DNA of 64,000 bases from an uncultured Acidimicrobiaceae bacterium. GTDB lineage: Bacteria; Actinomycetota; Acidimicrobiia; Acidimicrobiales; Bog-793. Below, one piece after another: positions 5,154-36,354 of this stretch. The notes beneath the pieces were generated by a model. It did not search any database and had not been told where the DNA came from. It worked only from the letters and a program-made list of their open reading frames with translations. The position numbers were made by a program, and so were the translations under genes. The stretch is taken from positions 155,705-219,704 of the forward strand of contig CAWDRQ010000030.1 in the NCBI GenBank assembly GCA_963804765.1. Direction: 5' to 3'. Position 1 is the stretch's first letter. Each line of letters starts with the position of its first letter.

Positions 5154-5179
5154 TCAGGACCGGACGTGACAGTCTCCCG

Positions 5180-18995: not shown

Positions 18996-19372
18996 TGTGC
19001 GTTGTCTCGCCCGACGCAGCTCAAGTGCCGGTCTCCGCACGTTGATACGGAATAAGGCATTTCTTCAGTAGGGACGCCCCGTTTGGCAAGGATGACCGCT
19101 TAGGTTGCCGCCTGGGTCCAGGCTCGACGCCTCTCCTGACCGATCCGGGAGGCGACGCGTGTCCAAGGCCGATCAACTTGCCAAGCCTGACGCCCTGAGA
19201 ACACAAGGGGTCTTCTCCGAGGCGGAACTTGCCGCTGAGCCAGCAAGACTGCTTGAGCCACCGGCACCGAGCAACCTTCCCGTCCCCGCGCCGTGGGCCC
19301 TGAGCCTCGTGGCCGCCGTCTGGTTCGTCCTCAGCGAAGTCGTCACTCAATGAACCAAGCAAGGGAACAGTC

Positions 19373-20470: not shown

Positions 20471-20486
20471 TCGCGATGAGTAACCC

Positions 20487-20852
20487 TCACGGTCCTTCGG
20501 GCCTTCGAACACGAACCAGATGGCCACGCACGACGACGATGCATCCTGTGAGGTCGCCGAGTTGCTCGTTGCTCAGAAAGCTCCGTACCGTGCTGGTTAC
20601 TGTTTCGACGTCCTGGTGCTCAGCACGGATGACGGCGATGCCAGGGTGGCTACCAGGCGGGTATCGACGGACATTGCCAAAGCCTCGATCGAGTGTGATG
20701 ACAAAGCGCTGCTCCCTCATCGCTGCGGCGAGGACATCGGGGTCGCCGGCGCCCGTAAGACCTTCGTCGATCACGGTGTCGACATCGTGGCCCCGGGAGG
20801 CGGCGGCAAGCCGCGCTGCCTCTGGGAGATTCTCGTCTAGCTTCAGCCTCAC
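20487..20852 (-). CDS. DUF5615-family PIN-like putative toxin
   Basis: 121 aa. It begins MRLKLDENLPEAARLAAASRGHDVDTVIDEGLTGAGDPDVLAAAMREQRFVITLDRGFG. The (L.DENlp......l...GhdV.....eGl.G..D..vl..a..e.r.liT.D.dF) pattern is typical. Confidence 0.8.
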   Translation of the reverse strand: MRLKLDENLPEAARLAAASRGHDVDTVIDEGLTGAGDPDVLAAAMREQRFVITLDRGFGNVRRYPPGSHPGIAVIRAEHQDVETVTSTVRSFLSNEQLGDLTGCIVVVRGHLVRVRRPEGP

Positions 20853-21109
20853 CCCGGCGACGGCTCGAGTGGGTGCAGCTCCTCACGGGCGAGAAAGGCC
20901 GCGTAGGAAAGGGCGGCGGCGACAGCACCTGGCGGAAGTGACGGGTACTCGACGCGGATCTGCTCCTCGGTCATTCCCGTGGCAAGGCAGTCAAGGATGA
21001 CGCTCACCGGGATGCGGGTGCCGCGAATCCGGGCCTGACCGTGCACGACCGCCGGGTCGGCGTCGATGAGGTCGAGGGGCTCGATTGCCATTGCTCCATG
21101 GTCCCACAT
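20849..21109 (-). CDS. DUF433-family antitoxin-like protein
   Basis: 86 aa; the start may be the second Met at 21091. It contains DPAVVHGQARIRGTRIPVSVILDCLATGMTEEQIRVEYPSLPPGAVAAALSYAA, the DUF433 signature. It overlaps the DUF5615 gene by 4 nt. Confidence 0.8.
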   Translation of the reverse strand: MWDHGAMAIEPLDLIDADPAVVHGQARIRGTRIPVSVILDCLATGMTEEQIRVEYPSLPPGAVAAALSYAAFLAREELHPLEPSPG

Positions 21110-21158
21110 CGGTCTGCCAATCGGTCATCCGATCCGCGGGCGAAAGCCTCGTCAAGTG

Positions 21159-21200
21159 GGTGGTGATGGCGAGCCGGCCTGTAGGCGGGGTTCTGTCCGC
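21159..21200 (-). repeat. Orphan copy of the 3'-terminal 42 nt of rnpB (att-type direct repeat, distal copy)
   Basis: ggtggtgatggcgagccggcctgtaggcggggttctgtccgc is identical over 42/42 bases to 33756-33797, in the same orientation. The flanking bases differ on both sides. Confidence 0.9.
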
Positions 21201-21242
21201 TGTGCTATTTGACCAGGACTCTTGTCTGCCGACAGGTGATTT

Positions 21243-21263
21243 GGGCCGCAAATGGGCCGCAAC
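21243..21263. promoter_or_regulatory. Phased GGGCCGCA direct-repeat pair (candidate arm-type integrase site)
   Basis: GGGCCGCAaatGGGCCGCAac, 43 bp inside the distal att copy. The partner pair GGGCCGCGgatGGGCCGCGtg is at 33653-33673. Confidence 0.5.
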
Positions 21264-21284
21264 ACCAGACGCGGGTCTGTGAAA

Positions 21285-21900
21285 TCAGCCTTCGATGGGC
21301 GCTCGCGCTGCTATATCGGAAGCACGCAAGCCTCGATCTACTGCTGCCCGAGTCCGGTCGTCAGTATCTGGCCACAGGTGGCCGTAGGTGTCGAGCGTCT
21401 CACTGGCTGTCGCGTGCCCGAGGCGGGCCTGAACGATCTTCACACTCTCGCCGCCGTCGATCAGTAGCGACGCGTAGTAGTGACGGAGAGCGTGAAAGCC
21501 AGTTCCATTAGGCGCGCCTGCCGCTTTCACTGCCGGACGCCAGACCTCGGAGAATCGCGTGCGGCGCAACGGCCCGCCCTGTGGATTGGTGAACAAGAGC
21601 CCGTCCGAGCCAAGCGGATAAGCCGCCATGTGAGCTGCGAGCTCACTGAGCACGACGTCGGGGAGCGGGATCGTGCGGACGCTCGCCGTCGTCTTCGGGG
21701 GGCACAGAATGATCCCGACGATCGCGCCAGATCGACGTTCTTGTGCACTTCACTGCTTCCGTTGCGATTCATGCGAGTTCCCCAGCCATTTCGTGAAGCA
21801 GCAGCATCAGGCAGTCTTGGCGAGCACCAGACCCCAATAACGCTGCCGCGCCGTGGCCGCGTCCACGATGCCCGCAGACCGCCCACCCTTGCGCGTTGAG
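21285..21900 (-). pseudogene. Tyrosine recombinase (phage-integrase family) remnant: catalytic half only, with frameshift(s)
   Basis: The C-terminal frame reads ...GIILCPPKTTASVRTIPLPDVVLSELAAHMAAYPLGSDGLLFTNPQGGPLRRTRFSEVWRPAVKAAGAPNGTGFHALRHYYASLLIDGGESVKIVQARLGHATASETLDTYGHLW (H.LRH...LGH...Y). The preceding EVHKNVDLARS lies in another frame. The N-terminal ~180 aa expected for such enzymes are not present. Confidence 0.7.
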
Positions 21901-22138
21901 GCACGCAATCGCCTCTTAAGTAGAAGGGCCTAACAGCAACAATCTCATCGCCAAAAACGCAATACGGGCCATTCGGAGAGCCTCTGCTTCACACCGCCTT
22001 CGCGGGTTCCGGGTCCGCTAAATCGGCCCGCCATTGTCGTCGCCTAGTGCCATCAGACTCGCTTCTAACTAACGATAAGACTGGTTTATCGTTGGTCACA
22101 AACGAGGAAAAGGGGAGGGCGCCGTGACGCTGCTCCAA
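21857..22138 (+). repeat. Integrase-leader module, copy a (about 282 bp)
   Basis: Roughly 75-80% identical by eye to 26641-26920. Weaker similarity extends back to 21764/26587. The module ends with a ribosome-binding site and the first five codons GTG ACG CTG CTC CAA of a plus-strand integrase. Confidence 0.8.
22071..22093 (+). promoter_or_regulatory. Conserved palindrome in the integrase leader
   Basis: Copy a is AACGATAA-gactggt-TTATCGTT. Copy b (26856-26876) is ACGATAAA-gctag-TTTATCGT. The arms are conserved while the centre differs. It lies about 30 nt upstream of the GTG start. Confidence 0.5.
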
Positions 22139-22294
22139 AGCACCAAGCAAGCCGTCGAACTGGCCGAGATCGCCTCCGATGCTCGGGACTACGTGGCCGC
22201 GAGCCGGGCCGAGAACACGACCTGTGTCTACCGCGCCGGCTGGGCGCAGTTCACCGCCTGGTGTGACGAGCACGGGGTGACGGCTCGGCCCTGA
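22124..22294 (+). pseudogene. Tyrosine recombinase, N-terminal 56-codon fragment
   Basis: VTLLQSTKQAVELAEIASDARDYVAASRAENTTCVYRAGWAQFTAWCDEHGVTARP*. The A..NT...Y...W..F..WC motif marks the SAM-like N-terminal domain of this integrase type. No catalytic domain follows. Confidence 0.6.
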
Positions 22295-22496
22295 GGAGCT
22301 GGCGCCGCTCTTCCAAGATTGGCAATGGCGGCCGAACGCTTGTCCGCGAACGTCGCCCCACGCTGACGTGAGCCTCCCCCGGTTTTCCGGAGGGGTTGGG
22401 AGGCGATATGGCAACGACGATGGGCAGACGGAAGGCGCGCCGCGGCGCCATCCCCAACGCCGCTCGAGTGCCGTCACCGGCGTCGACGGGGACGTG

Positions 22497-23261
22497 CTAG
22501 GTGCGGCTCGGCGTCGTGCCGGCGCGGCGGATGTCCTCCACCAGGGCGGCCAGGCGGTCATAATGCGAACCCTGCCAGTAGATCCGACTGCAGTCCGGGC
22601 ACGTCGAGAAGTCATTGTAGTCCCGCCGTGTCCGGGGCGGCAGGCGGTGTTCAACGTCCTGCTTCGCCACACGTTCGAGCACGCCGTTGCACTCGAGGCA
22701 TCGGCCGAACGGGGCGATGGCCCCGAACAGGTCGAACCGGCGCAGGATCTCGACGACCTGGCGACGGTAATTGGTCTCCCGCACTAGATGGCCGTGTGTG
22801 ACTTTGGCGTGCTTCAACAGGCCTCGATCCCTGGTGAGGAGGATCCGCTTCTCGTCCACCGAGATCGTCGCCAGTTCGTGGTCGGTGATGTCGTTTCGCC
22901 ACACTGAATCAAAGCCGAGGAGTCGTAGGATTCGGGCGAGCCGGCCGAGATGGACGTCGAGTACGAACCGCGGCTCGCGCAGCGGTCTCGGACGCAGCAG
23001 CACGAGCGACGACACGTCGAGCGCCTCGAACACCGGATACACGCTCACGCGGTCACCCTCACCCACCTGGTGGACGAAGTCCACGGACTCGCCGTTCACC
23101 AGGATCACCTCGATCTCGGTGTGTGGCACCCCGAACGACTCCGCCAGGTCCTTGACAGTGGTGCCGGCGGCCACCTCGAGCGTGATCGGCCGGCCACGCC
23201 GGTCCGGTGGCAGGAAGTCGTTCAACTCGGCATAGAAGCGGACTTCGACGCGGTGGCGCAT
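22497..23261 (-). CDS. Mut7-C RNase-domain protein with N-terminal ubiquitin-like (beta-grasp) domain
   Basis: 254 aa. The N-terminus MRHRVEVRFYAELNDFLPPDRRGRPITLEVAAGTTVKDLAESFGVPHTEIEVILVNGESVDF is the Mut7-C ubiquitin-type domain. It is followed by RFVLDVHLGRLARILRLLGFDS...ILLTRDRGLL (PIN-like Mut7-C). The C-terminal zinc ribbon is RCLECNG...CPDCSRIYWQGSHY. Confidence 0.85.
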   Translation of the reverse strand: MRHRVEVRFYAELNDFLPPDRRGRPITLEVAAGTTVKDLAESFGVPHTEIEVILVNGESVDFVHQVGEGDRVSVYPVFEALDVSSLVLLRPRPLREPRFVLDVHLGRLARILRLLGFDSVWRNDITDHELATISVDEKRILLTRDRGLLKHAKVTHGHLVRETNYRRQVVEILRRFDLFGAIAPFGRCLECNGVLERVAKQDVEHRLPPRTRRDYNDFSTCPDCSRIYWQGSHYDRLAALVEDIRRAGTTPSRT

Positions 23262-23452
23262 TTGCGTCGAGCGTAGGGGCCGTGGATGCCGGATTCCTGT
23301 GGGGTCCGCTCCAGCTCCCCGGCCAAACGCACGAGACTCTCGTCCAGACTGGCCGGCGATCTGCGCCGCGGCCTGCGCGAGTCACGGTCCGCTCGGCCTC
23401 GGCACCCCTGGTCGTCGAGTTGCAGGCCGACCTCGAACGGTGGCGTCTCTGC

Positions 23453-23530
23453 GGCGCGCCAGCCATAGTGGAACTGTTCACGGGCTACTGGCTCTGCCGC
23501 CCGTGCTGCGATCGCCTCGGGCGTGAGGCC
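23453..23530. repeat. Short diverged repeat (copy a) shared with the integrase downstream flank at 27340-27418
   Basis: Both copies start at GGCGCGCC and share about 65-75 nt at roughly 75% identity. On the minus strand several differences fall at third codon positions (EA(I/V)AA..AEPV(A/V)REQ(F/L)). Confidence 0.55.
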
Positions 23531-24151
23531 ATGAAGCTCAGCGGGGAATGGTCCGGCCTGCACTCCGCGGCGAGGCTGCCCACGCCTTTTCGCGCGCGGC
23601 GACCCCGCCCAGATCGCCATTCGTGCGGGCGTCTTTTGGATTAGCAAGCTCCACGGAGGAGCCAAAGAACCTCGGTTATGTCTTCGCCCGCGACCTCTCC
23701 GTTCCCGTGCCCGCTGTCATCGTCCAGCTGGCCTGCCCCAGTGATGGCCCTCCACGTCGCACACCTGACTAGGACGACGTCATCGACGACTGAGGGATAA
23801 CCATCACCGTGCCTCTGCAATGAGCATGGGCGGCAGTGCCGCACCCAGGTCGGTCCCGGCGCTGTGTCGCTCGCCACCCTACGGCATGCACGTGCGGTGC
23901 CCACCTCTTGCGCGTCAAGGTGCTGGCGACGCATGCTTGCGCGGTGGGCCCAAGGCCTAGCTGGAGGTAGCCGACGTGTTACCCAACGGTCATCCCTGTG
24001 ACGGGCCGTGGCCGGAACTGCCAGCTCGTCGCCGTCCCCCTGTCGTGGCGCTGCTGGTGGCCGCGCCGTCCCCCATTTGTGACACGGGTGCCAGTGCTTT
24101 AGGCCCTCATGACACCACGACCGTCATCGGCATCATCCCAGGAGGCGTGAG

Positions 24152-26254
24152 TTGATTCGTACTTGGCAGGTACGCAAGGTTGGAGCAGGTCGTCTGTGGC
24201 TGTGCCTCGTTTGTGTTGTCTCGACGGTTGCTCTCTCGATTGCCCCGGTGATGCTCGCTGGTGCTGCGAGGCCACCTTCGAACGCGCCGCTCGGGTTCTG
24301 GAACAGTTACGCGTACATCACTGACTGGGGCCCGACGTTCCCGTCCGACAAGCCTCCGGGAGGGCCTTTCCCCAACCCGACAACAATTACCTCCTACGAC
24401 CCGACGACAGGCGCTTTCTCAGGCACCGACAATGCCTGGGGCATAGGGCTGGAGAAGATAACCGGGACGCTCTACCCCGACGGCGCCGTGACGTACACGA
24501 TCGTTCACGCCGATGTGGTGCTGAATGGCAAAGGGACCATTACGTTCAACGCTGATGGAACCACCGCGATCTGGAAAGGTACCTGGAGCAATTCGATCGG
24601 CGAAATCGGCACGGACTACGGCGAATGGAAAGGATTCGTGCTGACGGGAACGGTGGAGGCGGACCCGTGCGGGCCTGACGCTACGTCGTGCTCTGTTCCG
24701 CCGACTCCGGTGTCCGGTGTGACAATGACCGCCACCGGGGCTTACCACGTTTCGGCGACAACTGACAGCAAGGGCGACTACTCGATGGTCCTCCAGGTGG
24801 GGACTTACACCATTAGGCCGACCATGGATGATTTCACCTTTGACCCCCCGTCGCGTTCAATCCACCTCGAGACCGACACGACGGATGTGGACTTCACGCT
24901 CTTGAGTTCTCCGTACAGCATCGACTGGCAGATGCCCAGCCGCGTGAAAGAAGGCACGGATGTCTCTTCTGACGGCGGCCTGCCACCTGCCAGCTATGTG
25001 TACCCGGACATGTGGTCGGCGAAGCTGTACCTGACCGAAGGTGGCACGCGGGTGACGTCCTGCCCGTCGGGGTCTGTCTGGAAGTGGCATGTGACCCCGC
25101 TCCACACGGTGGGCAACCGGGAGCCCACCATCACCGAACCGGAGGACGGGTGCGCAACTTCGTTCGAGACAACCCAGCTCGGGACTTACAGGGTGGTCGC
25201 TCAGGAATACAAGCGGACCCCCAAAGGCCTCGTCAAGGACGGGCCCGCAGTCGCCACGCCCGACGTGGTGCTCAACGACTTGTTGATCGTCGGCCTGGGC
25301 GACTCCAACGGGTCGGGCGAAGGGTACCCACCGTTCTACTTCAACCAGTGCCACCGGGGCACAGCGTCCTACCAGTACCAGGCAGCGCAGATGCTGGAGA
25401 AGCTGTTGGAAGGCCACACCAGCATCACGTTCGTTTCCGCCTCCTGCTCGGGTGCCAAGATCCAGAACCTGATCTCCCTCTCCTACGACGGCTTCCCACC
25501 GGGGAACTCGCTGGAGCCGCAGGTCGGTGCCGTGCGCGCGCTCATTGCCGACAGCGGTGGACAACCGCCCCGCAAGGTGGACGCCGCTTTCGTCTCGGTC
25601 GGGGTCAACAACATCGCGTTCGGGCCGGTGATGAGGTACTGCATGGCTGTTCATCTTTCGTACACGACGTGCTCAAACCAAAATGTCACGCCGGTCTACA
25701 ACGCGAACGGCCTTATCAGCGGCTTCGAGCATACGATGTCGTTTAGAGCTTTGACTTTGTCGGACTGGGTCGCCAAGCTGACAGCCGACCTGCCCAGGCT
25801 CTACGGCACGCTCGGGCCAGTGCTGGCGGACCTGGTTGCCCCCGAGGACACGTTCATCACGCAGTACCCGACTTTCGCCTACGCCGATACCAAAGGCAAT
25901 ATCTGCAGCATGCTCGGCCACGACAGCATCTTTACCGAAGCAACCTGGAAGTGGCTGATGGACGTCAACTTGGCGCTCAACGCCCAGGTCGCCGCCACTA
26001 GAAGTCTCGGCTGGCGGGTCGTGCCCGTCGCGCCCGCTTACTTCCTGGGCCACGGCTACTGCGCCACCGACTCCTGGTTCGTCAGTATTACCCGTTCCAT
26101 ATTCAACTTGAACATCGACGGCGCCTTCCATCCCACCGCGGACGGTGCTGCCGTGACGGCCAAGCTCGTCGCAGACGACTCGTGCCTGTGGCTGGTAGGA
26201 AAGCCCGAATGCGGCTATCACATCTTGCCTGTTGCTGGACCAGCTACGGGCTAG
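24152..26254 (+). CDS. Large secreted protein: carboxypeptidase-regulatory-like beta-sandwich plus C-terminal SGNH/GDSL-type hydrolase
   Basis: 700 aa with a TTG start after AGGAGG. The N-terminal TM/signal is LWLCLVCVVSTVALSIAPVMLAGA. The stretch GVTMTATGAYHVSATTDSKGDYSMVLQVGTYTIRP is a CarboxypepD_reg-like motif. SGNH blocks are IVGLGDSNGSGEG (block I), ...SVGVNNIAFG (block III) and FHPTADGAA (block V-like). Confidence 0.7.
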   Translation: MIRTWQVRKVGAGRLWLCLVCVVSTVALSIAPVMLAGAARPPSNAPLGFWNSYAYITDWGPTFPSDKPPGGPFPNPTTITSYDPTTGAFSGTDNAWGIGLEKITGTLYPDGAVTYTIVHADVVLNGKGTITFNADGTTAIWKGTWSNSIGEIGTDYGEWKGFVLTGTVEADPCGPDATSCSVPPTPVSGVTMTATGAYHVSATTDSKGDYSMVLQVGTYTIRPTMDDFTFDPPSRSIHLETDTTDVDFTLLSSPYSIDWQMPSRVKEGTDVSSDGGLPPASYVYPDMWSAKLYLTEGGTRVTSCPSGSVWKWHVTPLHTVGNREPTITEPEDGCATSFETTQLGTYRVVAQEYKRTPKGLVKDGPAVATPDVVLNDLLIVGLGDSNGSGEGYPPFYFNQCHRGTASYQYQAAQMLEKLLEGHTSITFVSASCSGAKIQNLISLSYDGFPPGNSLEPQVGAVRALIADSGGQPPRKVDAAFVSVGVNNIAFGPVMRYCMAVHLSYTTCSNQNVTPVYNANGLISGFEHTMSFRALTLSDWVAKLTADLPRLYGTLGPVLADLVAPEDTFITQYPTFAYADTKGNICSMLGHDSIFTEATWKWLMDVNLALNAQVAATRSLGWRVVPVAPAYFLGHGYCATDSWFVSITRSIFNLNIDGAFHPTADGAAVTAKLVADDSCLWLVGKPECGYHILPVAGPATG

Positions 26255-26640
26255 CTACAGTCACAGTCGCCCTCTTCCTCTTGCTTGGTTGTGCCAGCTC
26301 CGGCGGCCGTAAGTGGTCCGGTGGATAAGGGGACGCGTCGCTCCACCATGAGCCACGGCGGGCCGTGCAGAACTCCAGGTCCTGGACGCTCCCAGAACCC
26401 TCGCGGCGAGTGCGTCGTTGAGATTGGCGTAGCCCCGGAGCTGAAAGCAAGCCCAGGTGTCGTCAGGGACGCACGGGTCATCTCGCTATCCGCACCGATC
26501 GCCCCTTATTGAGTGGACGTTTTCTCGGTGCCCTGGGTGGATAGAGAGCGCGGAACGACGGGTCTAGCGTACGTCGCTGCTCTTGTCGCGACCCATGCGA
26601 GTGCCCGGGCCATCTCGACAAGAAAGCTACGGTGCGGTTA

Positions 26641-26920
26641 CCGCGTCCACGATGCCCGCAGACCGCCCACTGTTGCGTATGGGGGGGCGCAATCGCATCT
26701 CGAGTAGGAAGCTACCAGCGAGCAATCTCATCGCCTAAGCGCCGTCCGGGGCCAACGGAGAGCCGGTACTTGCATGCTGCATTCGCGAATCCCAGGCCCA
26801 CTGACTCGGCCTGCCATTGTCACCTGTCAGTGTCCTTGTGACTCGCTTCTAACTCACGATAAAGCTAGTTTATCGTTGGTCACAAATGAGGAAAAGAGAG
26901 GGACTGTGACGCTGCTCCAA
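26641..26920 (+). repeat. Integrase-leader module, copy b
   Basis: Partner of 21857-22138. It includes the palindrome at 26856-26876 and the GTG ACG CTG CTC CAA start at 26906. Confidence 0.8.
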
Positions 26921-27323
26921 GACCGATCAGGAAGGCGCCGGGCGCGCTGTCGGCATCCCCTACGGGTCGAACCCGGTTACCTGCCCGGTGCGTGCCTGGC
27001 GCGCGTGGCTCGAGGTCTCAGGCATCACCGAGGGACCGGCCTTTCGCCCGGTGGACCGCCATGACCGCATCAGCACGACACGACTAAGCGCCCAGGCGGT
27101 GGCCCTCGTGCTGAAGCGCCACGCTGGCCGTGCGGGGCTCGACCCCGGCGAGGTGGCCGGTCACTCGCTCCGCGCCGGCCTTGCGACTTCGGCTGCTGCT
27201 GCCGGCGTACCCGAGCGCGTCATCGCCGAGCAGACGGGCCACAGGGGCACGGCCATGCTTCGCCGCTACATCCGCGAGGGCTCGCTGTTTCGTGAGAACG
27301 CCGCCGGGGCGGTTGGGCTGTAG
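26906..27323 (+). pseudogene. Tyrosine recombinase with large internal deletion (first 5 codons fused out of frame to the C-terminal 133 codons)
   Basis: VTLLQ is followed, one base out of frame, by SKTDQEGAGRAVGIPYGSNPVTCPVRAWRAWLEVSGITEGPAFRPVDRHDRISTTRLSAQAVALVLKRHAGRAGLDPGEVAGHSLRAGLATSAAAAGVPERVIAEQTGHRGTAMLRRYIREGSLFRENAAGAVGL*. This carries the SKTDQ..G, HSLR and GH...Y motifs. The junction lies in the shared string CTCCAAG. Confidence 0.75.
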
Positions 27324-27552
27324 GGGAGGCTGGCGGGCAGGCGCGCCGGGCACGGTCGAGTTGTTCGCGAACTACCGGCTCTGCCGGCCCTGCTGCAACC
27401 GCCTCGGACGCGTAGGCGAGCCGTTGCCAGCGGTAGGAGACTTCCCGCTGGTAGCGCATATCGGCCAGCGGGCTGCCGTGCCTGGGCCGATTGCATTGTC
27501 CTCGTCGGGTACAACATGTGTCGGACCAACGATCCGTACCTGGAGGACCTTC

Positions 27553-28389
27553 ATGGCGACGAGCCCCACCGTCACGCTCAACAACGGCGTCGAGATTCCT
27601 CAACTCGGCTTCGGTGTCTTCAAAGTCAAGCCAATTGAGACCGTGTCCGCCGTGACCACCGCACTTCGGGTGGGGTACCGCCACATTGACACCGCGGAGA
27701 TGTACGGCAACGAGAAGGAGGTCGGCCTGGCCATCACCGCCTCAGGACTCGACCGGGACGACGTGTTCGTCACGAGCAAGCTAAACAACAACCACCACCC
27801 TTACAGCGATGCTCTCGCCGCCTTTGACCAGACACTGAGCGACCTTGGCCTCGAATATGTCGATCTTTTCCTCATCCACTGGCCTCTGCCGGCCGTTGGC
27901 GACTTCGTCGAGACGTGGCGCGCACTCGAGAGCGTGTACAGGGACGACCGCGCTCGGGCCATCGGCGTCTCTAACTTTCACGCCGACCACCTCCGCCGCC
28001 TGCTTGACGAGACGGAGCTCGTCCCGGCAGTCAACCAGATCGAGGCACACCCCTACCTGACCCAGGAGCCGCTTCGCGCTTTCAACGCCAGCCACGGCAT
28101 CAAAACCGAGGCCTGGTCGCCGATCGCCCGGGGCAGGGTACTGGACGATCCGACCATCAAGGCTGTCGTCCATCGGACCGGTCGGACAGCGGCGCAGGTC
28201 GTATTGCGATGGCACATTCAACTGGGCAACATCGTGTTCCCGAAGTCTGTCCGGCCGGATCGAATCGAGGAGAACTTCAACATCTTCGATTTCGAGCTCT
28301 CCGGCGAGGACATGGCGGCAATCTCGAAGCTAGACCGGGGCGAACGCACCGGCCCGGACCCCGACACGTTCAACTACGTGCCGGACTGA
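27553..28389 (+). CDS. Aldo/keto reductase (2,5-diketo-D-gluconate-reductase-like)
   Basis: 278 aa from ATG 27553: MATSPTVTLNNGVEIPQLGFGVFKV...GYRHIDTAEMYGNEKEVG...LFLIHWP...AIGVSNF...NQIEAHPYL...AWSPIARG. All standard AKR blocks are present. Confidence 0.9.
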   Translation: MATSPTVTLNNGVEIPQLGFGVFKVKPIETVSAVTTALRVGYRHIDTAEMYGNEKEVGLAITASGLDRDDVFVTSKLNNNHHPYSDALAAFDQTLSDLGLEYVDLFLIHWPLPAVGDFVETWRALESVYRDDRARAIGVSNFHADHLRRLLDETELVPAVNQIEAHPYLTQEPLRAFNASHGIKTEAWSPIARGRVLDDPTIKAVVHRTGRTAAQVVLRWHIQLGNIVFPKSVRPDRIEENFNIFDFELSGEDMAAISKLDRGERTGPDPDTFNYVPD

Positions 28390-28585
28390 GTTCATCGGTG
28401 GGCATGGTCGCGCCCAGTTCAGGTCGTGGAGGTATCTGCCGAGCTTGACTGCAAGATGGTCGCGAAGCACCGGTGTGACTCCTCCGGGCATGGGCTGCTC
28501 GACCTGGCTGCCTATGACGACTACCTGCAATGGCGGCTCGACCTGGGCTGAACAGGGCTCTCCGCCGCTTCGACCGTCGGTCGGC

Positions 28586-29017
28586 CTAGCGAGCCCAGTC
28601 CGGATCGAGCTGACTGAGGAACAGCGCACAGCGCTGCGCCTCGTCGATCTCTCCTATCGCTTCGGCAGCTCGGCGCAGGGCCTCGACTGAGCGCAGGAAG
28701 CCACGGTTCGTCTCGTGCCGCCAGCGCACGTAGCCCGAGCCTCGCCAGCCCGCGGCGCGTAGCGCGTCGAGCCCGCGGTGATAGCCGACTCGGGCGTAGG
28801 CGTAGGACTCCACTTCGTCCTCGACCAGCTCGGCCAGTGAGGCCCAAGCCTCGAGGAAACGCGGGTACGCGCGGGCAACGGCTTCGACCGCGGTTTCACG
28901 CTCCGCACCCGACATGGCGAACGCGTCCGCGAGGGCCTCCGTCCACTCCTCGGGCGGAGCGGGAAGCACCGTCTCAGGGAGGCCTCGGCTGAGATTGACT
29001 GCTGCGTCGTCGGTCAT
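28586..29017 (-). CDS. DUF3151-family protein
   Basis: About 143 aa from ATG 29017 (MTDDAAVNLSRGLPETVLPAPPEE...). The stretch AYPRFLEAWASLAE....ESYAYARVGYHRGLDALRAAGWRGSGYVRW....NRGFLR matches my memory of DUF3151. Confidence 0.7.
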   Translation of the reverse strand: MTDDAAVNLSRGLPETVLPAPPEEWTEALADAFAMSGAERETAVEAVARAYPRFLEAWASLAELVEDEVESYAYARVGYHRGLDALRAAGWRGSGYVRWRHETNRGFLRSVEALRRAAEAIGEIDEAQRCALFLSQLDPDWAR

Positions 29018-29163
29018 GGCTTCATCCTTGCTCAGGCCGCCGCGGGCTGGGCCACGGCGCTCAGGCCATCCTGTACGTGCTGATCGATCCAGGTCACCTT
29101 GGTCGGTCACTTACCCGACATGTATCGCCGAGTGGGAACTCTCCCGATGGTCTGGTCTCGGGA

Positions 29164-29814
29164 CTACTTAGCCGCTCTGGCCAACGTGATCTTGATCTGT
29201 GGTCGCCACGGCACCGACGCTCGCCGGATGCTTCGGAAGTCCTCGTCCTCCAGCATACGATCGAGGACTATCGAGGAGCTAAACCTGCCTTCACTCGGCC
29301 GTCGTGCCAAGAGCCAGCGGAGCCACCGCGCGGCAAGGATGTCAGTCAGGACGAAAAGGCCACCGCCACGAAGTACACGCCGAATCTCGTGGAGGCCCAG
29401 CTGCTGATCCGCCCAGTGATGGAAGCTGAGGGTCGTCAGGACAAGATCGAAGTGGGCGTCGGGGAAAGGGAGCTTCTCGACCGATCCATTCACGAAGCCG
29501 ATATGGTGATCTGCCCGAGACGCTTGAGCCTGCTTCACCATTCCAAGAGCGGGGTCCACCCCGACAAGCTCGGCGTAGGGGAAGCGACGATCCAACCGAC
29601 GTAGCAGTTGGCCAGTCCCGCATCCCACATCGAGAACAGCTTGGACCGACCGGGCGTTGACAGCGGCTTCGGAGATCGTCGCCTCTTGGACTGGTCCGAA
29701 GAAGATGCGCTGCAGGACGGAGCGGTCATAGTGCGACGACTGTTGACCGACTGACTCGATGAGCACGGCGACGGCATCCACCTTGATCATGACTGATGGT
29801 CGTGCCGTCGCCAC
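29164..29814 (-). CDS. Class I SAM-dependent methyltransferase
   Basis: 216 aa. Motif I is VLDVGCGTGQLLRRL, followed by ELVGVDPALGMV, FPDAHFDLVLT and LRGGGLFVLTD. Confidence 0.85.
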   Translation of the reverse strand: MATARPSVMIKVDAVAVLIESVGQQSSHYDRSVLQRIFFGPVQEATISEAAVNARSVQAVLDVGCGTGQLLRRLDRRFPYAELVGVDPALGMVKQAQASRADHHIGFVNGSVEKLPFPDAHFDLVLTTLSFHHWADQQLGLHEIRRVLRGGGLFVLTDILAARWLRWLLARRPSEGRFSSSIVLDRMLEDEDFRSIRRASVPWRPQIKITLARAAK

Positions 29815-29856
29815 TCGTGTTCACCGTGTCGAGCGCGAATGTTCAGGCTGTCGGCA

Positions 29857-30672
29857 TCACTCAGCGGTGATCTCCGCCACCGCCATTCGAGCCGATGATT
29901 CGTCGACGATCGCCTTCTTCTCACCGTAGGCGGCGACGAGGGACTGGACCGCCAGGTTGTTCACCACGCGGGGCAGGCCGCGGCTGACCTGGTGTATGAG
30001 CGAGTTGGCGTCGTCGGAGAACAGCCGGTCGCTCCGTCCCGCGAGCGCCAGGTGATCCGCGATGTAGTCGCCGGTCTCCGAAGCGCTCATGCCCTGCAGG
30101 TGGTAGCGCAGAGCGATCCGCTGCTCCAAGGCGGCGAATGCTCCGAGGCGGATGCGCCGGCGCAGCGTCGGCTGGCCGCAGAGCACGAGGGAGAACGGGC
30201 TCACCGAGTCGAGCTCGGCGTTCATGAGCAGGCGCAGCCCCTCGAGCTGCTCGGGGGAGAGAAGGTGAGCCTCGTCGACCGCGAGGATCACCTTCTTCCC
30301 CCGCTCGGCGGACTCCTGCGCGAGGAGGTCGGCCGTCTGAGGGACGAGCGCCGCGGCATGGAACCGGGGGACCCCTCCGAGCGCGCTGACGATCGCTGCG
30401 TGCATTCCGCGCACGCCGATCGTCGGGTTGGCGAGGTAGACGACGGTATGGCGCGACGAGTCGAGTCCGGCGACCGCGGCCCGAAGAGCCACGGTCTTGC
30501 CGGAGCCGACTTCGCCGGTGAGCACCCCCGCCGCGGACTCCACGACGAGGAACCCGACCCGGGCGACGGCCTCCAGGTGGCCGGCGTGACGATGCAGCGC
30601 CCCGGGGGCGACGTCCTTTCCGAAGGGCATCTTCGAAAAGCCGTAATGGGCACGAAGCAGCTCGATCGTCAT
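29857..30672 (-). CDS. ExeA/TniB-like AAA+ ATPase (transposition helper)
   Basis: 271 aa. It begins LLRAHYGFSKMPFGKDVAP.... Walker A is GEVGSGKTVAL and Walker B is ILAVDEAHLL. The stretch PFSLVLCGQPTLRRRI is typical of ExeA-type ATPases that accompany Mu-like DDE transposases. It has a 4-nt overlap with the upstream gene. Confidence 0.85.
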   Translation of the reverse strand: MTIELLRAHYGFSKMPFGKDVAPGALHRHAGHLEAVARVGFLVVESAAGVLTGEVGSGKTVALRAAVAGLDSSRHTVVYLANPTIGVRGMHAAIVSALGGVPRFHAAALVPQTADLLAQESAERGKKVILAVDEAHLLSPEQLEGLRLLMNAELDSVSPFSLVLCGQPTLRRRIRLGAFAALEQRIALRYHLQGMSASETGDYIADHLALAGRSDRLFSDDANSLIHQVSRGLPRVVNNLAVQSLVAAYGEKKAIVDESSARMAVAEITAE

Positions 30673-32069
30673 GACCGTCCCTCTCGTGTCTCGATGGGCC
30701 GGTCGGTGACGAGGTCCCAGCTCGCCGGGCGGGTGACGACGATGCCGTCCAGGTCCTGCTCGCTCGGGCCGGCGCCATCGGGCAGGTCGGTGTAGGCGAT
30801 CCTCTTGGCCATCTCCTCGCTGTGGCGGGCCTCGATGAGAGCGAGGTAGTCGATCCCGGTGGGCACAGGTGGTGGCTCGGGGTCCTTCGCGACCCGGGGA
30901 TGGCTGTGACGACGGGTGACGTGCGGCACCGCCTCACCCATCGGTCGGCCCTCGAAGCGGACCTCGACGGCTTCCAGATGGAACGGGTCGAAGACGAGCT
31001 CGACTCGCCGACCGATGAGCGCGGGATCGACCTCATATGAGTTGCCGAACAGGTTGACGGTGCCGGTCTTTGTGACCATGCGCCGCTCGGCCCACAAGAA
31101 GGCCTCGTGAAGCTGTTCGGCAGACGGCGGAGAACTGGGTGCTCCGCCGGCGAGGAAGCGCTCGATCGGCGCCTCGCCGGTCTCGGTGTGCCGGCGGCGG
31201 TGATAGACGGACTCGACGAAGGCGGAGAACAACGAGTTCATCTCGTCGAGGCCGCAGACCTTGCCGGGATCGAGCTCGACCAAGAACTGCTCCCGCACGG
31301 TCTTGAAGACGCGCTCGATCTTCCCACGGCCTTCCGGTCGACCCGGCTTGCTGTGATGGAGCTTCATCCCGAGCACCGCGCACGCCCGCAGCAGCTGGAT
31401 AGAGACCATTGCGCTCCCGTTATCGAGGTAGATGGCCTCGGGGATCCCACGTCGCTCGATGCCCGAGCGGAGTGCGGCCTCGAGGCGGAGCGTGTCCTCG
31501 GCGTGTCCCCAGCGATAGCCGACAAGAGCTCGGGAGTAGTCGTCGATGAAGGCGAACAGATAGGTCTTCCTCCCCCCGATGACCGGCCCGTGCAGGGCGT
31601 CGCCGGTCCACAGCTCGTTCGGGCGGTCCGCCTCGAAGCGCCCGAAGGCGAGTTTCGGCCGGCTCTCGGACCGGGCGAGGCCGACACGGACGAAGTGGCG
31701 CTGCAAGGTGCGCTCGTGCGGTGCCCAGCCCCCGACGGTCCGCAGCAGCTCGCAGATGTGCGCCGCGGTGCGCTCTGGGCGCTCGCGCCGCAGTCGGCAG
31801 GCGAGGTCCAGCAGCTCCTCGGGCGTGCGGGGGTTGGCATGGCGCGCCTCGGGCTTCAGTGCCGCGAAGCCGCCGGAGCGGAGCATCCTCGTCCAGCGGT
31901 CGATCGTGGCGCGTGACACGTACACCTCGGTCCCTCCCGGCCCGAGGTGGGCCGTGCCGGCCAGCTCTCGCGCGAGCCGGCCACGTTCAGCTCCCGACAG
32001 CGACTCGTCGACGAGGCAGCGCACGAGCGAGTAGCGGAACAACGCGACTTCGGTCGCGTGGTCTTCCAT
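30669..32069 (-). CDS. DDE (rve-type) transposase with Mu-transposase-like C-terminal domain
   Basis: 466 aa from ATG 32069, preceded by GGAGGAGG. An N-terminal HTH is present. The DDE triad context is WTGDALHG / FIDDYSRALVGYRW, IYLDNGSAMVS and GRPEGRGKIERVF. The C-terminal beta-barrel-like region is VTKTGTVNLFGNSYEV. Confidence 0.9.
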   Translation of the reverse strand: MEDHATEVALFRYSLVRCLVDESLSGAERGRLARELAGTAHLGPGGTEVYVSRATIDRWTRMLRSGGFAALKPEARHANPRTPEELLDLACRLRRERPERTAAHICELLRTVGGWAPHERTLQRHFVRVGLARSESRPKLAFGRFEADRPNELWTGDALHGPVIGGRKTYLFAFIDDYSRALVGYRWGHAEDTLRLEAALRSGIERRGIPEAIYLDNGSAMVSIQLLRACAVLGMKLHHSKPGRPEGRGKIERVFKTVREQFLVELDPGKVCGLDEMNSLFSAFVESVYHRRRHTETGEAPIERFLAGGAPSSPPSAEQLHEAFLWAERRMVTKTGTVNLFGNSYEVDPALIGRRVELVFDPFHLEAVEVRFEGRPMGEAVPHVTRRHSHPRVAKDPEPPPVPTGIDYLALIEARHSEEMAKRIAYTDLPDGAGPSEQDLDGIVVTRPASWDLVTDRPIETREGRS

Positions 32070-32127
32070 GGTCCTCCTCCTTCTTGTCTTCGGCCCTTTC
32101 CAGGTCGCCAAGAAGGCTCGCGGGCGC

Positions 32128-32709
32128 TCAGGACCCTGACGAGGGGGAACTCGTGTTGGTGAGGAGGCGGCCCGAGGTGATCACCGCCGCCCATCCCCAC
32201 CCCGGGCGCGGACCGAGGCGCCGGGTGGCCGTGGCCATCGCGAGACCGAGCGCTGCGAGCGCGTCGGCGAAGGGCGATCCGACCGGTGTGATCGCCCCGA
32301 GGGACGCGTCGAAGGCGTGCGCCCAGGCCCAGCAGCGCACCCGCAGCTGCTCGGCTGCCGCAGCGAAGCGACGGAACCATCCCCGCACGGTGTCCGGCGG
32401 GATGGACAGGCGCGCCCCGATCACGCGTCGACCGTCCCCGGCTGCTTTGGCGAGGAGCGCTTTTCCGATCGTCGCGAGCGCGTCGCGTCGGCGCAGGAGA
32501 CACGAGTCGGGCAACAAGACGTGGGTCTTCTCGCACGACCTGCAGCGTGAGCGTCTCGGGACGAGCGCGGTCTCGACACCTTCTTCACGAAGCGCGCGTT
32601 TGCGTGCCGAGCCCCAGGGTCGCAACTCGCCACCGCAACCCGGGCAGAAGAGCACCCCCGCCCCAAGGGACTGCTCGACCGCGGCGCGGTCACTCTCTAC
32701 GATGAGCAC
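32128..32709 (-). CDS. DUF6431-like zinc-ribbon protein (first gene of the transposon)
   Basis: 193 aa with GTG start 32709 after GGAGG. It has CPGCGGEL...RSRCRSCEKTHVLLP cysteine pairs and DTVRGWFRRFAAAAEQL. I recall this protein type directly upstream of DDE/ExeA pairs in actinobacteria. Confidence 0.55.
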   Translation of the reverse strand: MLIVESDRAAVEQSLGAGVLFCPGCGGELRPWGSARKRALREEGVETALVPRRSRCRSCEKTHVLLPDSCLLRRRDALATIGKALLAKAAGDGRRVIGARLSIPPDTVRGWFRRFAAAAEQLRVRCWAWAHAFDASLGAITPVGSPFADALAALGLAMATATRRLGPRPGWGWAAVITSGRLLTNTSSPSSGS

Positions 32710-32732
32710 GGATGCCTCCGGGCGTTTTAGGA

Positions 32733-32771
32733 GGACCCCCTCGTGCTCGGCAAGAGTTGGCGAGGGGGTCC
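32733..32771. other. Strong inverted repeat (11-bp stem, 17-nt loop) just upstream of the transposon's first gene
   Basis: GGACCCCCTCG-(17 nt)-CGAGGGGGTCC, a perfect stem, 24 nt upstream of GTG 32709 on the gene strand. No U-tract follows on the gene strand. A weak one (CUUGCAUUUA) follows on the plus strand. Confidence 0.5.
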
Positions 32772-33652
32772 TTGCATTTACTGGACGTCCTCACCCTGTC
32801 GTCGCTCGACCGACAGCGCAACCACTGCTGTCAGCTCAGCGCGTCGACACCTTGAATGCCCGGAAACCTCGCGGCGGTGTTCAAGGAATGTGTCGTTCTA
32901 CAACGACCAGCGATCGAAGTGGGCAACATCTCGGTCCTCCGCCATCCCGCTAGTGTGCGGTCCGCCAACGTACCTCGCAAGTGCCCACCAACCCGAACTC
33001 CCGGCGGCATCTTGGGTGTGATCACGCCTCCGTACACAACGTGCCGGTTGTGCGCCGAGACGCCCGAACTCGCCGGCGTACTCGGTAGCGACGCCCGAGG
33101 GAGACACATAATGACACCCCGAATGACGATCCGAGCTCAGGGTCGTACCGCGCCAGATCGAAGGTTCCGGAGCGGCTTCTCCAACGGCCTATCCGGCCCA
33201 CGACGGCCAAGCGCAGACCCGCCAGCCGGAGATCGTTGACGTCGGCCCTCCGACACGAACGTTCCTCCTTAGCTCGGACGTGCACGACCGAAGCCGATCT
33301 ATTCTCGCGGACGTGGCCAAGTTCTTGAGCGTCTGGACCGAGAAACTGAGAGAAGAATCTGGCCGCCATTCTGCACCCGAACTTTCCGCCGACACGGACG
33401 CCTTTGGCGCGGTCATGTTTTACGTCGATTTCTACATCTCCGACTACGCAAGAACCCGACGAATCGCTAAGCACCGAGCAGCTCGGGTCGTATCGATTAC
33501 GTCTCTCTTCTCAGGGTTCATTGTCACTACTCATGCCCGCAATACGTTGGCGTCCTTACCGTAGCTAGGAACAGCGAGCTGAACCTAGACCGCACGGCCC
33601 CACTGGGACGCGTGCGCTACCTTCACTCAGGCCAGTCGATCAGGGGTCGCGC

Positions 33653-33673
33653 GGGCCGCGGATGGGCCGCGTG
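33653..33673. promoter_or_regulatory. Phased GGGCCGCG direct-repeat pair (candidate arm-type integrase site, rnpB-proximal arm)
   Basis: GGGCCGCGgatGGGCCGCGtg, 83 bp from the att core. It has the same orientation and 11-bp register as 21243-21263. An AACGATAA motif at 33697-33704 matches the arms of the integrase-leader palindrome. Confidence 0.5.
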
Positions 33674-33755
33674 ACCACCGCAAGCGCGTGATAATCAACG
33701 ATAACGAGTGACACGTGAACAACCTGGTCAGGGGGTATTTCTACCCATCTCACCA

Positions 33756-34140
33756 GGTGGTGATGGCGAGCCGGCCTGTAGGCGGGGTTCTGTCCGCCGG
33801 CCGGCAAGCCGGTACCGACGGGGTGGCCATCCATCTACGCGGCCTACCTGGGGACATCGGGCGGGCCACCCGTCCCACGTTTGGCCTTGCTCCGGGTGGG
33901 GTTTACCGAGCCGACCGGGTCGCCCCGGCCGCTGGTGCGCTCTTGCCGCACCTTTTCACCCTTGCCTGTACACGGCGTGCCGTGCCATCGGCGGTCTGTT
34001 CTCTGTGGCACTGTCCTGCGGGTCGCCCCGACTAGCTGTTAGCCAGCACCCTGCCCTGTGGAGCCCCGACCTTCCTCAGCCGGCTGCGGCGCCGAAACGC
34101 CACACCGGCCGCGGCCACCCGGTCGACTCGCCATCACCGG
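33756..34140 (-). ncRNA. rnpB: RNase P RNA, bacterial type A
   Basis: The minus-strand sequence contains the universally conserved blocks GAGGAAGGUCGGGGCUCCACAGGGCAGGGUGCUGGCUAACAG, GGUGAAAAGGUGCGGCAAGAGCGCACC, GGUAAACCCCACCCGGAGCAAGGCCAAA and ACAGAACCCCGCCUA. A 12-bp P1 stem forms between GGUGAUGGCGAG (5') and CUCGCCAUCACC (3'). The ends are accurate to a few nt. Confidence 0.92.
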
Positions 34141-34222
34141 CGCCATTCTCCCACGTCCCGGGCGCGGCAGTCACGGGCCTCCACAATGAGCAGAAATCCT
34201 CATCGTGTCACATGATGAGTGG

Positions 34223-34251
34223 TTGAATATCGAAAACATGAGTGTTATACT
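34223..34251 (+). promoter_or_regulatory. Candidate sigma-70-type promoter of hsp20
   Basis: TTGAAT-17 nt-TATACT lies in a locally AT-rich stretch about 50 nt upstream of the hsp20 start. It is followed by the 12-bp perfect palindrome ACTGTATACAGT (34271-34282) and AAGGAG. Confidence 0.5.
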
Positions 34252-34301
34252 GTCAGAAATAGTTATACGGACTGTATACAGTAAGGAGATGAGCAGTAGA
34301 G

Positions 34302-34733
34302 ATGATGCGTTTTGATCCATTTCGTGAGCTCGATCGGCTGGCGCAGCCACCCTGGAGCGCCCGGGCGTCTGTGCCGCTTGACGTCTACCGCAAGGGTGAG
34401 AAGTTCATCGTTCGTGTCGACCTGCCAGGAATCGACCCCGCGAGCCTCGATCTGACGGTCGAGAGGAATGTGCTCTCGATCAAGGCCGAGCGCACCTGGG
34501 CGCCCGCTGACGATGACGAAGTCCTGGTCGCGGAGCGTCCCCAGGGAACCTTCACCCGTCGGCTCTTCCTCAGCGAAGGCTTGGACGCCGACAAGATAAC
34601 CGCCCAATACGAGCACGGCGTGCTGACGGTGACGGTGCCGGTCGCAGCCTCGGCGAAGAGCCGCAAGATCGACATCACGCTCGGCGCCCCGGACGACTCG
34701 AACGTCCTCGACGTCCAGGCAACCTCGCACTGA
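34302..34733 (+). CDS. Hsp20/alpha-crystallin small heat-shock protein
   Basis: 143 aa: MMRFDPFRELDRL...PLDVYRKGEKFIVRVDLPGIDPASLDLTVERNVLSIKAER...GTFTRRLFLSEGLDADKITAQYEHGVLTVTVPV. This is the full ACD signature. Confidence 0.92.
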   Translation: MMRFDPFRELDRLAQPPWSARASVPLDVYRKGEKFIVRVDLPGIDPASLDLTVERNVLSIKAERTWAPADDDEVLVAERPQGTFTRRLFLSEGLDADKITAQYEHGVLTVTVPVAASAKSRKIDITLGAPDDSNVLDVQATSH

Positions 34734-34917
34734 CCTGCACACGCCCAGGCGTCAAAGCGCCTGGGCGCCCGGTCACGAGACCTGATATCCCCTCACCGGT
34801 GATGGACGCGAGGTCTCCCGTGCGTGCCCAGCTGAAAAGCTGAGGGTCCCGAGGGGCCCGAGCGTCGTCTCCCAGTGCGACGGGGCGAGTCTGAAGTGCG
34901 GCGGTCCGCGCCTGCGA

Positions 34918-35547
34918 TCACCCGAGACCGGCGAGGTGTGCCGTCTCGTTGAAGCTGACCAGTGCCGGACCGAACGAGTCACCCGTCGAGATCCGGCTGA
35001 TCGACGCGACGCCGAGCGACAGCCGCCATGACATCTCCGGCCCGCCACCAAGCGCCCAGGTGACGGCCGCCCTGATCGGCGACAGGTGGGTCACGACGAC
35101 AACGTCACCGCGGGCTGCCTCGGCCGCGAGCTCCTCACAGGCGGCAGTCACCCTGACCCTGACCTCCTCGAGGGTCTCGCCGCCAGGCGCGCGCCAGCCG
35201 GCGTCCGAACGCCAGCCTTCCCAAAGCCCGGGCGGGAGCTCCCACGGCAGCGTCCCGTCAAGCTCGCCGTAGTCGAATTCCACAAAACGCTCGTCGAGCT
35301 CCACGCGGGGAAGCGCGCCGGGTCCGAGCGTTCTCGCGTAAGCCGCTGCGATCGCCTCCGCAGTCTGCCCGGCACGCCGGAGCGGGCTCGTGAAGATGTG
35401 GCAGGCACCAGTGCCACGCGTCGCCAACACGTTGCCAAGCGCGATCGCCTGGCGGTGCCCAAGCTCGGTCAATGGCGAGTCGATCCTTCCTACGAGCAGC
35501 CCTACGGCATTGGCCTCGCTCTGGCCGTGGCGGACGAGGAGGAGCAT
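34918..35547 (-). CDS. Histidine phosphatase (phosphoglycerate-mutase-like) family protein
   Basis: 209 aa. The N-terminal LLLVRHGQSEAN is the catalytic RHG motif, followed by LTELGHRQA and a later VVVTHLSPIRA. Confidence 0.85.
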   Translation of the reverse strand: MLLLVRHGQSEANAVGLLVGRIDSPLTELGHRQAIALGNVLATRGTGACHIFTSPLRRAGQTAEAIAAAYARTLGPGALPRVELDERFVEFDYGELDGTLPWELPPGLWEGWRSDAGWRAPGGETLEEVRVRVTAACEELAAEAARGDVVVVTHLSPIRAAVTWALGGGPEMSWRLSLGVASISRISTGDSFGPALVSFNETAHLAGLG

Positions 35548-35553
35548 CGACTG

Positions 35554-36342: not shown

Positions 36343-36354
36343 CGCTGCTCGAGG

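Follow-up and report, generated by a model that had tools for sequence, protein, structure and literature searches.

The minus strand of a 64,000-nucleotide stretch from an uncultured Acidimicrobiaceae bacterium (assembly GCA_963804765.1, contig CAWDRQ010000030.1; this whole stretch is called the window here) carries an intact gene for the class A RNA of RNase P, rnpB, at 33763-34130, where the Rfam model RF00010 (RNaseP_bact_a) matches over its full length (model positions 1-367, 220.5 bits, E = 3e-70). The 3' end of this gene is present twice. The 42-mer GGTGGTGATGGCGAGCCGGCCTGTAGGCGGGGTTCTGTCCGC, read on the plus strand, lies at 33756-33797, over the rnpB tail, and again at 21159-21200, with a truncated tyrosine integrase gene beside it; the 12.6-kb island between the two copies, at 21201-33755, is the subject of this report. 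The copies agree with 0 mismatches by direct reading and by pattern search, no further match turns up anywhere in the window when 3 mismatches are allowed (expected 0 in 100 shuffles), and their identity ends on both sides, with t/c to the right and tg/ca to the left. An earlier reading made from the letters alone (the original prediction) had described just such a perfect, abruptly bounded direct repeat, and in this it is borne out.

That reading had also equated the repeat with the last 42 nt of rnpB and had it cover the 3' strands of helices P4, P2, and P1. The covariance model, which it had proposed as a check on the gene ends, places 35 of the 42 nt inside rnpB as the final 35 nt of RF00010; the remaining 7 nt (CACCACC in RNA sense) lie beyond the model and prolong helix P1, the 5' flank at 34131-34138 being complementary to them (inverted repeat I4), and with its extended P1 the gene probably runs to about 33756-34138. 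Aligned to the model, the repeat takes in the 3' strands of P4 (ACAGAAC) and P1, whereas the 3' strand of P2 (GGCCACC, ~33822-33828) falls just outside it. The target rnpB is regenerated intact, with a full-length model match and P1 paired. We refer to the copy at 33756-33797 (minus strand; the last 35 nt of rnpB plus 7 nt) as the proximal attachment (att) core, or attL, and to the copy at 21159-21200 (minus strand) as the distal core, or attR.

ARAGORN found no tRNA or tmRNA gene in the window or in L003-L006 (L numbers denote the loci and contigs compared with it), and we rejected a tRNA or tmRNA as target in place of rnpB on these grounds. Integration at the 5' end of rnpB through P1 complementarity was likewise rejected, because the rnpB fragments contain a ACAGAACCC segment that is absent from the 5' end.

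Beside the distal core, Pfam recognises a Phage_integrase domain (PF00589) at 21285-21653 on the minus strand (E = 4.8e-12), and tblastn homology to full-length relatives, at 60-72% identity, spans 21288-21716 only, followed by a stop codon at 21285-21287. What survives is the C-terminal ~143 aa of an enzyme of ~380 aa, with the HxxR box and the region of the catalytic Tyr retained and the N-terminal domains and first Arg box gone. The frame reads toward the distal core and stops 85 nt from it, a direction and distance already given in the original prediction, which had extended the remnant to 21900, past the point at which homology stops. No other remnant of this integrase family was found in the window by tblastn. 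Elsewhere in the window, weak tblastn matches to tyrosine integrases (27-37% identity) at 11918-12582 and 60531-60866, both on the minus strand, may belong to other mobile elements.

Just inside each end of the island stands the tandem repeat GGGCCGC-N3-TGGGCCGC, which occurs exactly twice in the 64 kb, on the same strand (expected 0.12). The integrase-side copy, GGGCCGC-AAA-TGGGCCGC, lies at 21243-21260 (plus strand), and the rnpB-side copy, GGGCCGC-GGA-TGGGCCGC, at 33653-33670 (plus strand), 86 nt from the proximal core; both are presumed to be arm-type integrase-binding sites, by analogy with other tyrosine integrases. Nearer to the cores we read a CCTGGTCA motif at 33723-33730 (plus strand), 25 nt from the proximal core, and its inverted partner TGACCAGG at 21210-21217, 9 nt from the distal core; a related motif, GCAGGTCAG, lies between the integrase stop and the core in most loci in which the integrase adjoins rnpB. 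When the island ends are joined, they yield a reconstructed attP of ~230 bp. No internal core remnant of at least 13 nt exists at 21201-33755 in either orientation, the best internal match being 12 nt, and this, together with the matching repeat pair, argues that both ends come from one element.

Occupancy of the site in close relatives

Both junctions of the island recur in independent assemblies—the distal one, perfect 42-nt copy included, in an ENA contig of 8,970 nt (L003), where it is identical, and the proximal one in a JGI contig that spans it (L113)—which excludes an assembly chimera, a possibility that the original prediction had itself named as fatal. Comparison with close relatives, also proposed there, shows the 12.6 kb to be missing where both flanks are shared. 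L011 matches the window over 20431-21141 (its own 8268-8978) and again over 33756-38980 (10451-15683), and the 1.47 kb between these segments is an integrase cassette adjoining rnpB; L097 matches to 21139 and then again from 33756. In L011, L097, and L105 homology resumes at exactly 33755/33756, the edge of the proximal core, and on the other side chromosomal homology to L009, L011, and L097 breaks at 21139-21141. The island is thus missing from L011, L012, L097, and L105 with breakpoints at the repeat, and their site holds a smaller cassette instead. Such integrase-only cassettes of 1.3-1.5 kb, without cargo and in some cases pseudogenes, lie between the DUF433 gene and rnpB in L011, L012, L089, L095, L097, and L108.

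Between the point at which homology breaks and the distal core, comparison of junctions across relatives defines a 19-nt remnant at 21140-21158 on the minus strand, GCGAAAGCCTCGTCAAGTG in plus-strand reading, ending TCGTCAAGTG. It resembles the short arm CTGGTCAAGTG that separates the integrase stop from rnpB in L009 and L089, a resemblance that suggests a relic of an older tandem integrase cassette and not native DNA; in L009 a tandem array is preserved with its cassette intact. The claim that the displaced original 3' end of rnpB was left at the far junction accordingly stands in part: the second copy is there, but what follows it appears to be 19 nt of an older element.

The proximal end of the island can be followed into a second lineage. 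L113 is nearly identical to the window over the island end (490/492 nt), somewhat less so over rnpB (396/407), and only 87.9% identical in the chromosome beyond, and it is 99.8% identical to L105 over 4.6 kb from the first base of the 42-mer and fully different before it, L105 carrying another integrase cassette where L113 has the island end of the window. One island end is thereby found at the same base in two diverged chromosomes, and different occupants are found in near-identical ones, a hallmark of site-specific integration. A metagenome scan with the core returned 27 contigs, all of which matched intact rnpB genes.

Integrases of one family at rnpB in Actinomycetota

At E <= 1e-10 more than 1,000 homologues of the integrase stub are found, the majority in metagenome-assembled genomes of Acidimicrobiales and Nocardioidaceae. 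We surveyed 80 loci, one genome per species, that encode a relative of the stub (60-76% identity over the catalytic domain); they come from Acidimicrobiia, Nocardioides, Geodermatophilus, Blastococcus, Modestobacter, Pseudonocardia, Mycobacterium, Kineococcus, Aeromicrobium, and others. A full rnpB lies within 10 kb of the integrase in 63 of the 80 loci, where by our own estimate a single-copy rnpB would be expected in a random 20-kb stretch less than 1% of the time, and in 53 the 3' end of rnpB, or a 3' fragment of it, follows directly and convergently after the integrase stop, typically at 16-100 nt. The original prediction had suggested a search for other orphan 3' rnpB fragments beside integrases, and the survey supplies them: 20 of the 80 loci have a second, co-oriented copy of the final 22-40 nt of rnpB on the integrase side, 2.3-10.6 kb away. 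The core of the family is the last ~25-42 nt of rnpB, a range into which the core of the window fits. Most of the integrases seem complete in length (frames of at least 330 codons in 67/80 loci), and full-length members have an N-terminal, a SAM-like/central, and a catalytic domain. Cargo in the bounded islands is diverse and includes HTH_17 excisionase-like proteins, HK97-type capsids, TrwC relaxase, metal resistance, toxin-antitoxin and restriction-modification genes, and transposases. Among cultured phages and plasmids the best integrase matches are 42% (Arthrobacter phage TripleJ) and 37% (a Streptomyces plasmid) identical, and the family has no cultured representative there.

Three arrangements of integrase and target occur. 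In the majority (A) the integrase converges on rnpB. In a second (B), to which the window belongs together with L004, L013, L048, and L074, it lies at the far end, co-oriented with rnpB, and reads into the displaced core; the window integrase thus departs from the majority. In a third (C), seen in L049, L066, and eight metagenome contigs, it starts just downstream of rnpB and reads away. Arrangements A and B are not separated in a weakly resolved neighbour-joining tree on 111 aa. We considered inversion as the source of the far-end arrangement and rejected it, since inversion between the two cores would disrupt the tail of rnpB and unrelated loci whose integrases are intact show the arrangement as well. 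Some integrase-only cassettes carry a partial inverted core on the far side of the integrase (L011 ~9075-9105, L009 ~1885-1915, L105 ~343-356), which simple integration, with its direct copy, does not predict.

In four loci (L028, L039, L047, L082) we observed frames of 600-800 codons in which the integrase frame reads through antisense rnpB, and the C-terminal tail of P0100 looks alike; these frames are likely annotation artefacts in public data.

The family is also found in viral genomes. In IMG/VR, ~15 viral contigs encode such integrases, their catalytic domains being 55-73% identical. In one of them, L129, taken from a 33-kb contig, the integrase is flanked on either side by phage genes (a large terminase, E = 7.5e-72, a helicase, and a minor tail protein) and is followed by a 28-nt core of the rnpB 3' end with no rnpB body—an unsplit attP in a phage genome. 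L126 (15.1 kb), with terminase and major head genes, has the same layout, and L127 is similar. Each of the three has, on either arm of the core, tandem repeats specific to the element, namely GTGCACA (L129), GTCCGCAG (L126), and GTCCCCAGAT (L127). No exact match to the window core exists in IMG/VR, so that no free attP of this very element was found; its attP is known only as the reconstruction from its two ends, and an attP with the rnpB 3' end is present in the related L126, L127, and L129. Capsid, terminase, or other virion genes are present in L119 (9.7 kb), L126, and L129, and the small capsid- or terminase-encoding elements with an integrase of the rnpB family (L119, L126) could be phage satellites, or phages of very small size, with rnpB as their target.

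Interior of the island and neighbouring genes

All cargo genes listed in the first reading—integrase debris, a Mut7-C protein, a 700-aa protein, an aldo/keto reductase, a DUF3151 protein, a methyltransferase, and a Mu-like transposon—were confirmed by Pfam. From the distal end inwards, a protein with Ub-Mut7C and Mut7-C RNase domains (22497-23261, minus strand; E = 4.7e-48) is followed by the 700-aa protein (24152-26254, plus strand), whose CarboxypepD_reg and GDSL-like matches are weak and below curated cut-offs, and by the aldo/keto reductase (27130-28389, plus strand), which has an NCBIfam DkgA-like match and a domain that begins only at about residue 142, its true start being probably near 27553. 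The DUF3151 protein (28586-29110; E = 8.6e-39) and a class I SAM-dependent methyltransferase (29164-29814) are both on the minus strand. At the rnpB-proximal end of the island lies a 150-aa open reading frame (ORF; 33022-33474, minus strand), 100% identical over the 56 aa that L113 covers.

A transposition module, recognised by Pfam and NCBIfam, occupies 29857-32709 on the minus strand and consists of an AAA_22 ATPase (29857-30672), a DDE transposase with rve and Mu-transposase C-terminal domains (30669-32111), and a DUF6431/HTH protein (32128-32709). Mu A/B, Tn552, and the TniA/TniB pair of Tn5053 each combine a DDE transposase (rve plus Mu-transposase C-terminal domain) with an AAA+ ATPase partner. 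The module shares this two-gene architecture, but its ends and target-site duplication were not found and no TniQ or resolvase was seen in it; among possible terminal inverted repeats there were only weak pairs inside genes, none convincing. The module is a passenger of the island and not the maker of the 42-bp repeat.

Two direct repeats of ~380 nt, at 21760-22145 and 26540-26925 (plus strand), are 76-94% identical, lie ~4.8 kb apart, and bracket the Mut7-C and 700-aa genes as a 4.4-kb module; they are seen in the window and in L003 only. At the end of both copies stand a ribosome-binding site and a GTG start, and copy 1 leads into a 56-codon stub at 22124-22294 (plus strand), read from the translation and called as a 56-aa gene in L003. 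By motif resemblance the stub may be the N-terminal part of another tyrosine recombinase, one not related to the rnpB family; Pfam gave no match to it.

No excisionase was recognised (10 small island ORFs are without a Pfam match), no capsid, terminase, or other virion gene appeared among the island ORFs in Pfam, and neither of the hallmarks of actinomycete integrative and conjugative elements (a replication initiator and an FtsK-like transfer protein) was present as a Pfam domain in the island. Rfam returned nothing credible in the interior besides rnpB. Exact-protein look-ups with the transposase and the 150-aa ORF gave no match, probably because start codons differ, and a look-up with HisPhos matched only contigs shorter than 2 kb. 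The truncated integrase, the second recombinase stub, the transposition module, and the lack of a recognised excisionase all fit a composite island that would no longer be mobile by itself, as the original prediction had it, and yet its att sites are still perfect.

Outside the island, the DUF5615/DUF433 pair (20487-21109, minus strand) is conserved beside the att site in relatives by Pfam and synteny. The block 19021-21139, which holds a Flg_new-repeat protein in addition to DUF5615 and DUF433, is missing in the L105 lineage, where the chromosome joins at ~19020; it may be older island material, though no core remnant marking it was found. On the other side, an HSP20 gene (34302-34733, plus strand) lies just upstream of rnpB in the window, L011, L087, and L095 and is missing there in L012, L097, L105, and L113, which makes this side of rnpB variable too. 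Further away, gene calls on the identical contig L003 give a YoeB-like toxin gene at 18454-18714 (minus strand) with a Phd/YefM antitoxin neighbour, and group II intron RNA domains lie at 5117-5192 and 6890-7007 (minus strand; RF00029 and RF01999, both above gathering scores).

Origin of the island and its place among known systems

Taken together, the association of the integrase family with rnpB, the breakpoints in relatives, the alternative occupancy of the site, the attP sites in phages, and the matching pair of arm-type repeats make it very probable that the DNA at 21201-33755 is a genomic island and that a tyrosine integrase of this family brought it into the 3' end of rnpB by site-specific recombination. 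This is the mechanism put forward in the original prediction—integration by an attP that carries the 3' end of an RNA gene, with the gene regenerated and a second copy left at the far end—and several independent lines now support it. The free element would have carried, beside the 3' end of its integrase gene, an attP of ~230 bp made up of an arm-type repeat, CCTGGTCA, the 42-nt copy of the rnpB 3' end, TGACCAGG, and a second arm-type repeat. Recombination with the identical chromosomal sequence would have kept rnpB intact, its tail now followed by element DNA, and placed the second core at the far end beside the integrase. The site would already have been held by an older integrase-only cassette, of the kind still present in relatives, so that a tandem array arose whose old cassette was later deleted to 19 nt; the island would then have decayed, its integrase losing the N-terminal ~240 codons while the second recombinase stub, the 380-nt repeat pair, and the DDE transposase/ATPase module accumulated. 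We infer the function of the arm sites, the order of these events, and the deletion of the older cassette.

Several observations weigh against this account or limit its reach. The empty site that was predicted, with rnpB running directly into native DNA and DUF433, was not found for this lineage, relatives holding the 1.3-1.5 kb integrase cassette instead. The comparison with the second lineage, L113, extends over 492 nt of the island only and so does not bear on co-transfer of the whole 12.6 kb. The far-end position of the integrase is shared by ~6 loci, against 53 in which the integrase adjoins rnpB, and the flip of the core relative to the integrase is unaccounted for. Given the truncated integrase and the lack of a recognised excisionase, we make no claim of activity for this copy, and the ~380-nt repeats and second recombinase stub indicate that part of the interior arrived by other events.

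The last of these points would also suit an array of two or more elements integrated successively at rnpB, with the intervening cores erased. Relatives do show tandem junctions (in L006/L017 and L009 a core fragment stands without an rnpB body), the distal copy of the window adjoins what appears to be the relic of another element, and inside the island there are the stub of a second recombinase and the 380-nt direct repeats on either side of a 4.4-kb module. The whole interval, however, lacks an internal core remnant of the length given above in either orientation, and each end has, close within it, a copy of one rare tandem repeat, as the two halves of a single attP should; we regard successive integration as unlikely. 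A different objection is that the integrases beside rnpB are vertically inherited, domesticated residents and that the variable DNA came by other routes, such as homologous recombination of the flanks. Cargo-free cassettes between DUF433 and rnpB in several relatives, some of them pseudogenes, would fit such residents, yet vertical inheritance is hard to reconcile with different occupants in the 99.8% identical contigs L105 and L113, with three arrangements and highly diverse cargo, with the presence of the same integrase family and rnpB core inside phage genomes, or with the 55 Mycobacterium avium reference genomes that are without the rnpB island described below, and we consider this explanation highly improbable. 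Even harder to credit is a repeat that arose without site-specific recombination—by local duplication, as a by-product of the internal transposon, or as an assembly artefact—beside an integrase stub that is there by coincidence. It is true that a transposition module lies inside the interval and that the integrase is a fragment. Against this, both junctions are present in independent assemblies, breakpoints relative to relatives coincide with the repeat edges, 42 bp far exceeds the target-site duplication of a transposon, and the repeat is the exact rnpB segment used by integrase relatives, both in the attP sites of phages and at upwards of 50 other loci.

Integration at rnpB through a family tyrosine integrase has close counterparts among known elements. 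Lambda Int and the Int of mycobacteriophage L5 are heterobivalent tyrosine integrases with arm-type sites. An attP of this type would resemble those of the rnpB family in that the core is flanked on both arms by short non-core repeats and the integrase gene lies beside it, and the three-domain build of full-length family members is a further likeness; as a difference, Pfam detected no arm-binding domain in integrases of the rnpB family at E <= 0.001.

A general parallel is the class catalogued by Islander, namely islands and prophages that occupy tRNA and tmRNA genes at their 3' ends (Williams 2002, cited in PMC4383910 and PMC12884075). Like these, the window island has a tyrosine integrase, a reconstructed attP with the 3' part of an RNA gene, a regenerated gene, and a bounding direct repeat of that 3' part, and both kinds of element form tandem arrays at the same site, are sporadically present among relatives, and decay to immobile remnants. 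It differs in its target, the gene of the RNase P ribozyme, in a core that lies on the 3' strands of P4 and P1, and in the distance of its integrase from the intact gene.

For rnpB itself the prior record is thin. The original prediction had not known rnpB as an established target and had for that reason called the case unusual, and indeed no paper that we found, including mycobacterial genome papers by RNase P specialists, names rnpB in its text as an attB or attachment site; the sole record is a supplementary table of TIGER, which does list one case. This is the island Mav1.21.RNaseP_RNA of Mycobacterium avium 104 (NC_008595.1:2220283-2241568, 21,286 bp), which has a 42-nt identity block (ggaacagaatccggcttacagg...) at the same rnpB position as the window and a tyrosine integrase 37 bp from its rnpB-side end, and which is missing from 55 reference genomes (Mageeney et al. 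2020, PMC7192596, supplementary file 1). It shares with the window island the RNase P RNA target, the place of the 42-nt block, a single tyrosine integrase at one island end, and sporadic presence, whereas its size (21.3 kb), its rnpB-proximal integrase, and the class of its host are different. Five Mycobacterium loci in our survey (L031, L037, L040, L056, L070) have the same core beside family integrases, and we infer that the M. avium 104 integrase belongs to the family of the window integrase. A later TIGER/Islander summary groups sites as tRNA/tmRNA, coding, and intergenic, and rnpB islands presumably fall under the last of these. The target has thus already been catalogued and apparently never discussed in a paper.

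These comparisons have practical consequences. Tools that search only tRNA and tmRNA genes miss rnpB islands, site classifications may file them as intergenic, and gene callers yield spurious long ORFs antisense through rnpB. In mycobacteria, where rnpB serves as a phylogenetic marker, its 3' tail can derive from an element. The family also offers candidate integrases with a conserved, single-copy attB for the genetics of poorly tractable actinobacteria, and, with a core that lies in the conserved P4/P1 tail of the gene, family integrases could be broad-host-range integration tools for these organisms.

What the window preserves is a decayed representative of a large and scarcely documented family of rnpB-targeting elements, with a mechanism that is the classical one at tRNA and tmRNA genes; as a relic it is of limited interest in itself, and the picture at the level of the family is more interesting. 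We lean, with some reserve, towards the view that in more than one class of Actinomycetota—Acidimicrobiia as well as Actinomycetes, including Mycobacterium, Nocardioides, Geodermatophilus, Blastococcus, and Pseudonocardia—rnpB is a major hot spot of integration, served by one integrase family in temperate phages, small capsid-bearing elements, mobilisable islands, and bare cassettes, with an unusually plastic attP in which the integrase may lie on either arm and in either orientation, and apparently undescribed bar one row of a table. The targeting of rnpB is no isolated event in Actinomycetota but is common in one integrase family, real phages included, and the RNase P ribozyme gene joins tRNA and tmRNA genes on the short list of structural RNA genes used as safe landing sites.

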